Positions 27,001-30,000 of a DNA stretch of 64,000 nt are shown in pieces. The stretch's first letter is position 1. Each line of letters starts with the position of its first letter. Position numbers: made by a program. The DNA comes from Escherichia coli (GTDB lineage: Bacteria > Pseudomonadota > Gammaproteobacteria > Enterobacterales > Enterobacteriaceae), in the NCBI RefSeq assembly GCF_013122565.1, contig NZ_CP053258.1. The stretch is one strand, 5' to 3'.

Positions 27001-30000
27001 ATATTACGGCTTACGCACATAATGACACGATGCTGGTTAATAATGGGCAAAGCGTGAAGGCTGGGCAAAAAATCGCCACTATGGGGAGCACTGATGCGGC
27101 ATCTGTTCGCCTGCATTTCCAGATTCGTTACCGTGCAACGGCAATTGATCCGCTACGTTACTTGCCGCCTCAGGGCAGCAAGCCAAAATGCTGATGGCGA
27201 ATTAATCAGCAGTCAGCAGCGCGGCACTTGCTAAGGAGAGCGTAAGGTTTATAATGCCTTACGCATCTCGAAGCGGGCGTAGTTCAATGGTAGAACGAGA
27301 GCTTCCCAAGCTCTATACGAGGGTTCGATTCCCTTCGCCCGCTCCAATTTATCTTCACCTCATCAACCTGCCATTTTTGTTGTATCTGATTTTCTATATT
27401 ATCTTAATTCAATCGGTTCAGACTTTTCGCAATCGCCGTAATACTTCCCCATTTTTTTGTAAATAAAAAGCGATTACGCAATGCAATCCTTTTGTAACAA
27501 TCCAGGTAAAATACCTTATTTTCAAGTTGTTAAATAAGTGGTTATCTACGCTTTTAACAAACGATTGATGGAATATTTTATGAAAGGGAAATCTGCATTA
27601 ACTCTTCTGCTCGCTGGTATATTTTCATGCGGCACCTGCCAGGCGACAGGGGCAGAAGTGACGAGTGAATCTGTATTTAACATTCTTAATTCCACGGGGG
27701 CAGCAACAGATAAAAGTTATTTATCGTTAAATCCAGATAAGTATCCTAATTATCGTCTTCTGATTCACTCAGCCAAATTAAAAAATGAAATAAAGAGCCA
27801 CTATTCCAAAGACGAAATTCAAGGATTGTTAACATTAACAGAAAATACACGAAAGTTAACGTTGACGGAGAAACCCTGGGGAACATTTATTCTTGCTTCT
27901 ACTTTCGAAGATGACAAAACAGCGGCAGAAACCCACTATGATGCTGTCTGGCTGAGGGATAGTTTATGGGGCTATATGGCCTTAGTATCAGATCAGGGAA
28001 ATAGTGTAGCCGCAAAAAAGGTTCTGCTCACCCTGTGGGATTATATGTCTACGCCCGACCAGATTAAGCGGATGCAGGACGTCATTAGCAACCCAAAACG
28101 ACTGGATGGAATTCCTGGGCAAATGAATGCTGTGCATATCCGATTTGACAGCAACTCCCCCGTGATGGCGGATGTGCAGGAAGAAGGCAAGCCGCAGCTG
28201 TGGAACCATAAACAAAATGATGCGTTAGGTCTTTATCTTGATCTCCTTATACAAGCAATCGACACTGGTACTATTAACGCTGAAGATTGGCAAAAAGGTG
28301 ACCGATTAAAATCGGTTGCGCTGCTGATTGCTTATCTGGATAAAGCCAATTTCTATGTTATGGAAGATTCCGGAGCGTGGGAAGAAGATGCCAGATTAAA
28401 CACATCTTCCGTTGCACTGGTGACCTCTGGACTGGAACGTTTGTCGAACTTACTCTCGAAGAAAGACTCTGTTTTTGTCTCTGATTTACTACGTGAAGCT
28501 AAAGCCAATGAACTGGATGAACCTCTTTCAACAACGAGGTTGAACCACCTCATAGATAAAGGTTATGAAAGAATAACGTTACAGCTTGATTTAGGGGGAG
28601 AATCCCCAGGTTATCTGGAAAAAGATAAACATTACAGAGAAGCCGATGCGGCTTTACTTAATGTTATTTATCCTGCAAATCTTTCAAAGATAAACACCAG
28701 AAGAAAAGAGCAAGTTCTAAAAATAGTTAAAAAACTAGCAGGTCCGTATGGTATAAAAAGATACGAGAAGGATAATTATCAGTCGGCAAATTTTTGGTTC
28801 AATGATATTAAAACCGATACCGATCAAAATTCGCATGCAAAAAGAGAAAAGAGCTTCATTCCATCAACAGAAGCAGAATGGTTTTTTGACTCATGGTATG
28901 CAAAATCAGCAGCAATTGTTTATAAAGAATCAAGAAAAGAAGAGTATTTGAATGACTCAGTGCAATTTATGAATAGATCATTGGCCCAAATAACAGGCGA
29001 GAATATGATTGGTGCAAATGGCAGGAGTGTACCTGAAATGGCACTTCCCGAAAGCTATAACTATATCCACAAGTCGGGAACTTTGCATGAAGCGCCAAGC
29101 CCTATCATTCCGCTAAATTGGTCGAAAGCATCAATGACTCTCATGTTGAAAGAGATGTCCAACCTTATCAATGATGAGGGAAATAAATAGTTTTCATAAT
29201 GAGGCGGTCCTGGATTAAAAGGACCGCTCAAAGAGAAATCGAAAGGGGAGGTAAAAGTGATCAATAAATTACTGTTAGCTTACCTGATAGGTCTGGTTGT
29301 GACATCGACTTTAATATTTATCTTCTCGGAAGAAAAAGTAACATATCGGTTGTTTGCTGCAATAATTACAGGTTTAACCTGGCCGCTTAGTCTCATTCCT
29401 TCCATTATAAGTCTCATGATTCGTAAATCCGACTAACAAGAAAATTATATGATCGATTAAGAAAAATAGAATCGAACAGGAGAATAAAATATATGCGGGG
29501 AGTAACAAAACACTCGCAGTGCGTTAATGAAGAACTAACAAATATGATTTGTATTGAAAATAGTTACCAAACAAGTGTTATAAGAAATACGAGGTGTGTT
29601 TAAGTAAAGCATATCAACAGTTACAAATCTGTATATGGACAGGATGACGTACAAGTGTAAGTGGCTGATAGCTATTCGCTCATAACAAAATCATTATTTT
29701 ATAAATAGGAATCATCACTTTTTAATCATGTTTTTATAGCAATTTTATGGAGAATGAGAATATGGAATAAGGAGATGAAACATGATTGAAGAAGGGCTGT
29801 TACTTCCAATGAATGTTTTGCTTCAAGGACAGAAGTTAACCCTACTGGACCCTGAAATGTGGTTCTTACGGGGAAATGAAAACAAGGATGTAACCCTTGT
29901 TATTACGATCGGTAATAACCATCAAAAATTAATGGTAGTGGAAGATATATTACTGCTCATTGACCGAAGCCAAATTGAGGTAACGGCAGGGAAAGTAATT

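Follow-up and report, generated by a model that had tools for sequence, protein, structure and literature searches.

The ETT2 island and its upstream regions

The window, a 64,000-nt stretch of Escherichia coli DNA, contains an intact ETT2 type III secretion island, which spans approximately 26.3-55.5 kb and has a GC content of 36%, compared with ~52% in the flanks. A tRNA at 27273-27343, annotated as tRNA-Gly in matching genomes, adjoins the island start and was the sole gathering-level match when the whole window was searched with Rfam. The first-pass annotation singled out three intergenic stretches as long AT-rich leaders, and these were confirmed at 29437-29781 (upstream of eivF), 42689-42936 (upstream of eprH, with etrA divergent), and 46710-46930 (upstream of ygeK/etrB), with the sequences that it gave. 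The eprH start in RefSeq is the ATG at 42946, not the GTG at 42937. A contig search with EivF gave a single match, on a mis-binned E. coli contig. The features of the three regions are listed in Table 1.

Table 1. Genes, boxes, and candidate promoter elements in the eivF, eprH, and ygeK regions
Feature	Positions	Strand	Basis or remark
Distal AT-rich part of the gap between the ghoT/ortT-like gene and eivF	29438-29711	none	30% GC, fast-evolving
eivF box CATCAC-TTTTT-AATCAT, variant HilA-type direct repeat	29713-29729	+	Cross-genus conservation; PWM
Ultra-conserved eivF core: predicted -10 element and transcription start, Shine-Dalgarno, ATG, first 19 codons	29744-29840	+	E. albertii comparison
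'uORF' MENENME and stop, chance ORF overlapping the predicted -10 element and transcription start	29747-29770	+	Shuffles, comparison
Tandem GAGAAT GAGAAT, candidate -10 element(s) of the eivF promoter	29750-29761	+	Predicted
eivF, InvF-like AraC regulator, first gene of the eiv/epa operon	29782-30531	+	RefSeq annotation of matching genomes; ORF
etrA, GerE/LuxR-type regulator, divergent from eprH	42188-42688	-	Pfam GerE in the E. albertii orthologue
eprH box CATCAT-GATTT-GGTCAT	42868-42884	+	Conservation; PWM rank 4
eprH, PrgH family, first gene of eprHIJK-orgAB	42946-44127	+	
ygeK/etrB box TTTCAT-TATTA-TTTCAT, perfect Salmonella-type repeat	46825-46841	+	Exact pattern match; PWM rank 2
TATAAT, candidate -10 of the ygeK promoter	46865-46870	+	Predicted; 23 nt past the box, compared with 24 nt in Salmonella
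ygeK/etrB, response-regulator receiver and GerE domain	46931-47563	+	

The GC contents of the eivF, eprH, and ygeK regions were 30.1%, 30.6%, and 24.4%, respectively. All 14 intergenic regions of the island have a GC content of 24-43%, and 12 of them fall at 24-31%. Among island windows of equal length, the eivF region ranked at the 8th and the eprH region at the 13th percentile, and the ygeK region at 0.1%. The description of the three stretches as extremely AT-rich therefore holds for the ygeK region, but not for the eivF and eprH regions, which are typical of the intergenic DNA of the island. Relative to the host genome, all three have the raised AT content of an H-NS-silenced region in an acquired island (24-31% vs ~52% GC).

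As features of H-NS nucleation, both a TCGATAAATT-like motif and phased A-tract curvature were looked for in the three regions, and neither was found. The Lang-type H-NS motif TCGATAAATT was not enriched; with up to two mismatches, it matched once in the eivF region and nowhere in the eprH and ygeK regions. The power of AA/TT at periods of 9.5-12 bp did not exceed that of dinucleotide shuffles in any region (p = 0.08 for eivF, 0.27 for eprH, and 0.89 for ygeK), and the phased A/T tracts reported earlier are no more than chance. In a wedge model, the mean curvature of the regions was ordinary, but the maximum of the island was a single sharp local peak at 29738, amid T-tracts spaced 12 bp apart (29719, 29731, and 29743).

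The distal part of the eivF region shows only ~40-47% identity to E. albertii, that is, it is unalignable, and its segment 29560-29625 was present at an identity of at least 99% in only five E. coli genomes. No specific element was found in this part, which gave no Rfam match and no sense-strand sigma-70 consensus. A scan for the sigma-70 consensus likewise found no sense-strand promoter in the eivF, eprH, or ygeK region; the absence of a consensus fits activator-dependent promoters but proves nothing. No known cis-regulatory RNA was recognized between 29400 and 29900, where the best Rfam match scored 13.5 bits (E = 0.49). Taken together, the three stretches are probably ordinary promoter regions of ETT2 transcription units, and they would serve eivF with the downstream eiv/epa genes, eprHIJK-orgAB with the divergent etrA, and ygeK/etrB.

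HilA-type boxes in the three regions

Each of the three regions contains a conserved box, nnTCAT-N5-nnTCAT, which the first-pass annotation had overlooked. The box matches repeats found upstream of prgH and invF in Salmonella, and its spacing to the start codon holds in four or five genera. Salmonella SPI-1 DNA, located via the exact PrgI sequence, supplied the reference boxes; a 'Salmonella' PrgK match was rejected as a source of SPI-1 DNA because it belongs to a different type III secretion system. The repeat is TTTCAT-TCTAT-TTTCAT-CAGG upstream of prgH and TTTCAT-AATGT-TTGCAT-CAGG upstream of invF, each with a -10-like hexamer 24 nt downstream. We take these repeats to be HilA sites (the 'HilA box'; Lostroh and Lee, 2000/2001), and the 2001 study reportedly places the box at about -54 to -37.

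The ygeK region contains the direct repeat of TTTCAT and TTKCAT with its 5-nt spacer in full. Across the 64 kb, TTTCAT-N5-TTKCAT was matched exactly by the ygeK box and nowhere else (0.06 expected); the box lies in sense orientation with the same hexamers as those upstream of Salmonella prgH. It is kept in E. albertii and Yersinia, and E. fergusonii has a near-match. Compared with the strict Salmonella hexamers, the eivF and eprH boxes have mismatches at 5 and 4 of 12 positions, respectively, the shared core being TCAT-N7-TCAT; in the E. coli eivF box, the first TCAT is replaced by TCAC. Judged by sequence alone, these two boxes are not significant.

The eivF and eprH boxes are the sole conserved blocks in upstream DNA that has otherwise diverged in E. 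albertii, Yersinia, and E. fergusonii. E. coli and these three relatives share TCATCA, TT, and AATCATGTT of the eivF box without change, with diverged flanks, and all four have the box at -66/-67 from the ATG. The eprH box, at -76/-78 from the ATG, forms a conserved patch amid diverged E. albertii DNA; a near-identical counterpart is found at -78 in Yersinia, and the Salmonella counterpart TTTCAT-TCTAT-TTTCAT at -83. A position weight matrix (PWM) was trained on three sites from other genera only (two eivF-box orthologues and one prgH counterpart of the eprH box) and ranked the eivF, ygeK, and eprH boxes 1, 2, and 4 among 127,964 positions. Further high scores were observed at 50.8-51.5 kb on the plus strand, opposite to ygeG and ygeF.

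A motif shared by the eivF and eprH regions, TCATCAnnnTTTnnTCATG, was discarded. It had two matches against 0.04 expected, but the pattern was defined post hoc, and 14/19 identities between two AT-rich regions are estimated to occur by chance about ten times; this comparison was therefore replaced by the tests on sequences from other genera.

The eivF start region and its mini-ORF

Nowhere else in the island are E. coli and E. albertii as alike as in the 97-nt eivF core, where they have a single difference. Its exact runs of 69 and 27 nt are the longest in the ~25 kb of ETT2, which has 71-75% identity between the two species. The central 66 nt (29746-29811) were unchanged in 1304 of 1311 E. 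coli genomes, in which the distal part varies freely.

This near-identity could be the trace of a short recombination event (gene conversion) and carry no special function. DNA exchange between the two species is possible, and 97 nt with one difference inside 75%-identical DNA would suit such an event. However, the identity fades gradually to either side, with no abrupt end (95% in the box, 83% in the spacer, 100% in the core, and ~92% in codons 11-28), within E. coli the core is fixed and the DNA 150 bp upstream of it polymorphic, and the box, the Shine-Dalgarno sequence, and the first codons are kept in Yersinia and E. fergusonii. We consider a recombination patch rather unlikely.

Alternatively, the core might be fixed as a post-transcriptional control element, either a hairpin hiding the Shine-Dalgarno sequence and the AUG or a cluster of GGA motifs acting as a CsrA-type site. 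A hairpin covering the Shine-Dalgarno sequence and the ATG is predicted at 29771-29824, and three GGA motifs are present at 29749, 29764, and 29771, the last of which lies inside the Shine-Dalgarno sequence. The folding analysis was not convincing: z was only -1.06 for the leader with the early coding sequence, which includes this hairpin, and -1.9 for the whole intergenic region, and the four-genus consensus fold reached only -3.6 kcal/mol. Control of this type appears unlikely; if true, it would add an extra translational checkpoint on the InvF-like regulator of ETT2.

The core also contains the tiny uORF noticed previously. The sequence ATGGAGAATGAGAATATGGAATAA lies exactly at 29747-29770; the AAGGAG Shine-Dalgarno sequence (29769-29774) shares nucleotides with its TAA stop and precedes the ATG of eivF (29782) by 7 nt. 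Position and overlap are thus as first described, but as a feature the uORF is at chance level and has no Shine-Dalgarno sequence of its own, none being present before its ATG (CATGTTTTTATAGCAATTTT). The eivF region contains 8 ATG mini-ORFs, compared with 7.2 +/- 2.0 in shuffles, and in 28% of the shuffles an ORF with 5 or more codons terminated within the final 20 nt. The frame is missing from Yersinia and E. fergusonii, which keep the box, the Shine-Dalgarno sequence, and the N-terminal codons. Within E. coli and E. albertii it has no substitutions, but neither have its surroundings, so there is no codon-level signal; invariance that is equal over the non-uORF bases on both sides is uninformative on coding. 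The eivF ORF resembles regulatory uORFs and leader peptides with translational coupling (such as pheL, tnaC, and uORFs that overlap a Shine-Dalgarno sequence) in being a short ORF whose stop falls within the Shine-Dalgarno sequence of the gene that follows. In contrast to these, the eivF ORF lacks its own ribosome-binding site, is no more than expected by chance, is not conserved beyond a wholly invariant sequence, and has a predicted location at the transcription start or upstream of it. The mini-ORF is a product of chance. Since its ATG lies at or upstream of the predicted eivF start, it would not be translated.

Promoter organization and regulation

Candidate -10 elements were found downstream of all three boxes, and the gap from box to -10 varies from 20 to 26 nt over the three regions. 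In the eivF promoter, four genera share the AAT at 29753-29755 unchanged and, depending on which GAGAAT copy is taken, the candidate lies 20 or 26 nt past the box, compared with 24 nt in Salmonella PprgH and PinvF. The eprH candidate, TAAACT at 42911-42916, is 26 nt past its box, and the TATAAT of the ygeK promoter lies within a nearly invariant proximal 130 bp. On the box-to-start spacing of Salmonella, transcription would start at ~29762-29768 for eivF, 42922 for eprH, and ~46877-46879 for ygeK, which would give true 5' leaders of ~15, 24, and 53 nt, respectively. The same spacing implies that the bulk of each stretch, originally taken for a long leader, is probably untranscribed upstream DNA.

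Published genetics connects these genes to both a silencer and an activator. In enteroaggregative strain EAEC 042, the expression of eivF, etrA, eprH, and ygeK increased upon deletion of hns and decreased upon deletion of ygeH, and Salmonella invF::lacZ was activated by both YgeH042 and EilA when hilA was deleted (PMC4210603). A 566-aa protein with the HilA-type architecture (Trans_reg_C and TPR) is encoded at the Yersinia locus as well as at that of E. fergusonii.

Based on these observations, each promoter is proposed to consist of two layers. The first would be the generic AT-rich island DNA, at 24-31% GC within a 52% GC genome, which H-NS would coat and thereby keep the island silent. The second would be a specific element ~65-105 nt before the start codon, formed by the two TCAT-containing hexamers 11 bp apart. 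The box is most likely bound by YgeH, the HilA-family regulator of the island, or by its paralogue EilA, just upstream of a weak -35 region, and the bound protein would recruit RNA polymerase and counteract H-NS. We estimate a probability of approximately 0.7 that a HilA-family activator at the conserved boxes, together with H-NS-coated AT-rich DNA, explains the three regions.

This organization resembles that of the SPI-1 promoters PprgH and PinvF-1 of Salmonella, which H-NS silences and HilA activates and which serve orthologous genes (prgH/eprH and invF/eivF). Both systems have a direct repeat of TCAT hexamers with a 5-nt spacer, a -10-like hexamer 20-26 nt downstream, an AT-rich island, a HilA-family activator, and higher expression in hns mutants, and YgeH can stand in for HilA at PinvF. 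The ETT2 likeness is known from sequence, and the start spacing is borrowed from Salmonella. The two systems differ in the hexamers, which are CATCAY, AATCAT, and GGTCAT at eivF and eprH but TTTCAT and TTKCAT in SPI-1. They differ also in the distance from box to start, ~67 nt to the ATG for eivF and 182 nt to the annotated start for invF, and in the third ETT2 box before ygeK/etrB, which had no called counterpart gene in the SPI-1 DNA examined.

The boxes might instead be operators for a LuxR/GerE-type ETT2 regulator (EtrB/YgeK, EtrA, or YqeH) rather than sites of a HilA-family protein, which would account for the autoregulation of ygeK and the repression of eivF and etrA. According to a review (PMC10877973), EtrB/YgeK regulates its own expression and represses eivF and etrA. 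Both Yersinia and E. fergusonii have kept a YgeK-like gene beside the prg/org operon, and the eprH box contains TCATGA-N5-TCATGA (42870-42886), a self-complementary arrangement that suits a dimeric helix-turn-helix protein. On the other hand, the ygeK, invF, and eivF boxes are direct, not inverted, repeats, and the hexamers of the ygeK box are those of the Salmonella prgH repeat, presumably a HilA site. Furthermore, gene calling in the SPI-1 DNA examined gave no YgeK-like gene, and YgeH and EilA act on Salmonella PinvF. Operators of the GerE type are accordingly doubtful, and a HilA-family activator remains the preferred occupant of the boxes.

H-NS silencing of ETT2 is already published, and the original observation adds nothing new to it. 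The idea itself survives: the first-pass annotation would have given it up had the genes not been derepressed in hns mutants, and the EAEC 042 data show derepression. The sequence arguments first offered for it (phasing, motif, and AT content) do not stand. At the eivF and eprH regions, direct H-NS action is a candidate route; the authors of PMC4210603 credit the effect of the hns mutation to YgeH. The K-12 DNA upstream of ygeK has ~95% identity to 46710-46930, and the K-12 'promoter island' labelled ygeK(-)/ygeM(-) was bound by H-NS in 3/3 ChIP-chip data sets (PMC3661553, Table 1); judging from its label and from coordinate conversion, this island probably covers the ygeK upstream stretch. 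K-12 has lost the eivF and eprH regions, which therefore lie outside the K-12 ChIP data. The promoter islands of Shavkunov, Panyukov, and Ozoline (PMC3661553) resemble the three stretches in being located in horizontally acquired DNA, and those in the K-12 ETT2 remnant (ygeK/ygeM, yqeH/yqeI, ygeF/ygeG, ygeG/ygeH, and ygeH/ygeI) are all bound by H-NS. Unlike the present analysis, that paper names no activator boxes.

The initial model, in which curved, AT-rich transcribed leaders nucleate H-NS and the uORF stop codon couples or occludes eivF translation, fits the AT-rich DNA, the derepression in the hns mutant, the curvature peak at 29738, and an invariant uORF (1304/1311 E. coli genomes and E. 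albertii) whose stop overlaps the Shine-Dalgarno sequence, but it is very unlikely given the insignificant phasing, ordinary regional curvature and AT content, unenriched H-NS motif, unalignable distal 'leader', and a uORF with no Shine-Dalgarno sequence that is equalled in 28% of shuffles and absent from Yersinia and E. fergusonii.

With a HilA-family activator as the preferred reading, the analysis adds a map of three probable activator sites, namely the boxes of Table 1. The ygeK/etrB box, if true, would put EtrB directly under the control of YgeH. The boxes are also simple targets for mutagenesis to determine whether intact ETT2 islands, including the present one, can be activated. With its near symmetry, the eprH box reads TTTCAT-GACCA-AATCAT on the minus strand and could serve etrA instead; a minus-strand TATAAT (42850 down to 42845) is located 21 nt downstream of it, towards etrA.

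Composition and proposed H-NS binding of the ETT2 upstream regions

BLAST searches against complete E. coli genomes and their RefSeq annotation identified the ETT2 type III secretion island, which occupies ~29 kb (~26.3-55.5 kb) at 36% GC in an E. coli chromosome segment with flanks of ~52% GC and is adjoined by a tRNA at 27273-27343, annotated as tRNA-Gly in matching genomes. Given the gene positions in ETT2, the three flagged stretches are therefore the upstream regions of eivF, eprH/etrA, and ygeK. The nearest complete genomes were 99.2-99.7% identical to the window. ETT2 in the window (33374-39006) looks intact (eivA, 686 aa; eivJ, 298 aa; epaO, 315 aa; eprH, 393 aa), and in the fetched RefSeq E. 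coli genomes eivJ was split, epaO frameshifted, or much of ETT2 deleted.

Genes, upstream regions and candidate elements in the window
Feature	Position	Strand	Remark
ygeQ			GH15 gene
GhoT/OrtT-family toxin ORF	29258-29437	+	59 aa; membrane toxin; GTG start, GGAGG Shine-Dalgarno sequence
eivF upstream region	29437-29781		30.1% GC
eivF box	29713-29729	+	variant HilA-type direct repeat
uORF	29747-29770		MENENME, then stop
eivF	29782-30531		eiv/epa apparatus genes after it
etrA	42188-42688	minus	divergent from eprH
eprH upstream region	42689-42936		30.6% GC
eprH box	42868-42884	+	variant HilA-type repeat, nearly symmetric
eprH	ATG at 42946		then eprIJK-orgAB
ygeK upstream region	46710-46930		24.4% GC
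ygeK box	46825-46841	+	HilA-type direct repeat
ygeK/etrB	46931-47563
ygeH	48553-49929	minus

The toxin ORF lies directly upstream of eivF and is conserved in E. albertii (positions 1980-2159 of locus L013); no antitoxin was evident for it, and no terminator was predicted between it and eivF.

The first-pass annotation had placed the three stretches and the uORF string exactly and had described the DNA as extremely AT-rich with phased A/T tracts. The GC content is indeed only 24.4-30.6%, but 12 of the 14 island intergenic regions are likewise at 24-31%, and the eivF and eprH regions reach only the 8th and 13th percentiles in GC among equal-length island windows. The phasing did not hold, as AA/TT periodicity at 9.5-12 bp was not above dinucleotide-preserving shuffles (p = 0.08, 0.27, and 0.89). 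A wedge model gave ordinary regional curvature means in the three regions and one sharp local maximum at 29738, the highest in 34 kb, where three T-tracts lie 12 bp apart. Position 29745 is G in each of the other seven E. coli sequences of the alignment and T in the window, which lengthens the T-tract beside the predicted -10 element of eivF. The TCGATAAATT-type H-NS motif was not enriched across the three regions.

The proposed H-NS silencing was right in substance according to published H-NS data, although it is already in the literature. In work on EAEC 042 (Huttener et al. 2014, PMC4210603), H-NS binds the ygeH promoter, and expression of eivF, etrA, eprH, and ygeK drops when ygeH is deleted and increases when hns is deleted, an effect that the authors ascribe to YgeH. 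The 612-bp K-12 'promoter island' ygeK(-)/ygeM(-) was H-NS-bound in three of three ChIP-chip data sets (PMC3661553). The K-12 DNA upstream of ygeK is ~95% identical to the window region, and from the island's label and conversion between genome versions we infer that the promoter island covers the matching stretch. Direct action of H-NS at eivF and eprH is putative.

HilA-type boxes conserved across genera

The analysis adds three conserved HilA-type boxes, missed in the first pass, and a reinterpretation of the leaders as short. The three regions were compared with an ETT2 locus assigned to E. albertii from cluster names, which is ~71-75% identical in coding DNA; most of each intergenic region varied freely and one short block was fixed. 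In the eivF region, 29470-29700 was unalignable (~40-47% identity), and identity rose abruptly to 90-100% from 29710 onwards. In the eprH region, TCATCATAATTTGGTCA formed a conserved island amid diverged E. albertii DNA, and the Yersinia counterpart was CATCATGATCTCGTCATG at -78. The EivF homologues of Yersinia enterocolitica and E. fergusonii are ~55% identical, and their upstream DNA was unrelated save for TCATCA..TT..AATCATGTT, which keeps its E. coli position of -66/-67 relative to the ATG. Upstream of ygeK, both E. albertii and Yersinia kept TTTCAT-TATTA-TTTCAT-CAATG, and E. fergusonii had a near-match.

The ETT2-like loci of Yersinia (L020) and E. fergusonii (L021) each encode a YgeK-like regulator and a 566-aa protein of HilA-type domain architecture; they share the gene order prgHIJK-orgAB, YgeK-like regulator, SLT, 566-aa protein, and the upstream boxes were also kept. 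In the E. fergusonii locus, prgH is split and its upstream region rearranged.

Salmonella SPI-1 DNA was reached via the exact PrgI sequence and three hops along the island. The repeats TTTCAT-TCTAT-TTTCAT-CAGG (prgH) and TTTCAT-AATGT-TTGCAT-CAGG (invF) were found upstream, each with a -10-like hexamer 24 nt downstream, and presumably correspond to the HilA box, which Lostroh and Lee reportedly described as two hexamers, 5 nt apart, that lie between -54 and -37. A Salmonella enterica contig (DALAKF010000016.1) carries a second SPI-1-like T3SS (sipB-sipC-sipD-prgHIJK-orgAB) distinct from canonical SPI-1.

Across the 64-kb window, a single site matched the strict pattern TTTCAT-N5-TTKCAT perfectly (0.06 expected): the ygeK box, in sense orientation with TATAAT 23 nt further on. 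The eivF and eprH boxes differ from this pattern at 5 and 4 positions, respectively (hexamers CATCAY, AATCAT, GGTCAT), and are not significant against it from sequence alone; what supports them is that they are conserved across genera. A PWM trained on only three sites, that of prgH in Salmonella and the eivF-type ones of Yersinia and E. fergusonii, ranked the eivF, ygeK, and eprH boxes 1, 2, and 4 of 127,964 positions; the training set consists in part of orthologues of the eivF and eprH sites, whereas the ygeK result is fully independent. Ranks 3, 5, and 6 clustered at 50823-51485 (+), around ygeG, ygeF, and yqeK and antisense to the first two.

Predicted promoters, leaders and candidate regulators

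YgeH042 and EilA can replace HilA in Salmonella and activate invF::lacZ alike (PMC4210603). Each region may be an H-NS-coated, activator-dependent promoter, at which YgeH or EilA would bind the box and activate a weak core promoter; the sense strand of the three regions showed no sigma-70 consensus. With the Salmonella spacing carried over, transcription would start near 29762-29768 (eivF), 42922 (eprH), and 46878 (ygeK), so that the leaders, formerly called long, are predicted at only ~15, ~24, and ~53 nt, and the uORF ATG would coincide with or precede the eivF transcription start. The uORF lacks a Shine-Dalgarno sequence; ATG mini-ORFs number 8 in the eivF region, where shuffles lead one to expect 7.2 +/- 2.0, and 28% of shuffles give a comparable terminal uORF. 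Tandem GAGAAT hexamers within the uORF (29750-29761), with AAT invariant across four genera, are candidate -10 elements of eivF. The initial observation was partly confirmed, the uORF and phasing finding no support, and the ETT2 promoter regions are ordinary biology of a known kind.

The main rival explanation treats the boxes as binding sites of a GerE-type regulator, EtrB or EtrA. EtrB is monocistronic, autoregulated, and QseA-activated, and represses eivF and etrA (review, PMC10877973). In favor of this rival, the eprH box is self-complementary (TCATGA-N5-TCATGA). Its minus strand reads TTTCAT-GACCA-AATCAT, and a perfect TATAAT directed towards etrA lies 21 nt beyond it (42845-42888). A box-dependent promoter for the divergent etrA, with a leader of ~150 nt, is possible.

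Conservation around the eivF start codon

The 69 nt at 29744-29812 form the longest exact E. coli/E. albertii match in ~25 kb of aligned ETT2, the next longest being 43 and 35 nt; after a single A/G difference at 29813, the match runs 27 nt more to 29840. This stretch spans the predicted -10 element, 5' UTR, ATG, and first 19 codons of eivF. Of 1311 E. coli genomes, 1304 carried the 66 nt at 29746-29811 without a difference, and a distal 66-nt control segment reached 99% identity or more in only 5. Promoter, Shine-Dalgarno sequence, and the conserved N-terminus (MI.EG.LLP) account for part of this conservation, but not for the synonymous sites, which are frozen as well. The plain alternative for the identity of 29744-29840 is a small patch of recombination. 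A predicted hairpin (29771-29824) would sequester the eivF Shine-Dalgarno sequence and AUG, and the single A-to-G change keeps a pair in it; the hairpin's z-score was -1.06, and the four-genus consensus fold was weak. An antisense box-like repeat, CTTCAA-TCATG-TTTCAT (29775-29791, minus strand), differs from the Salmonella pattern at 2 positions and lies across the eivF start codon, within 29744-29840.
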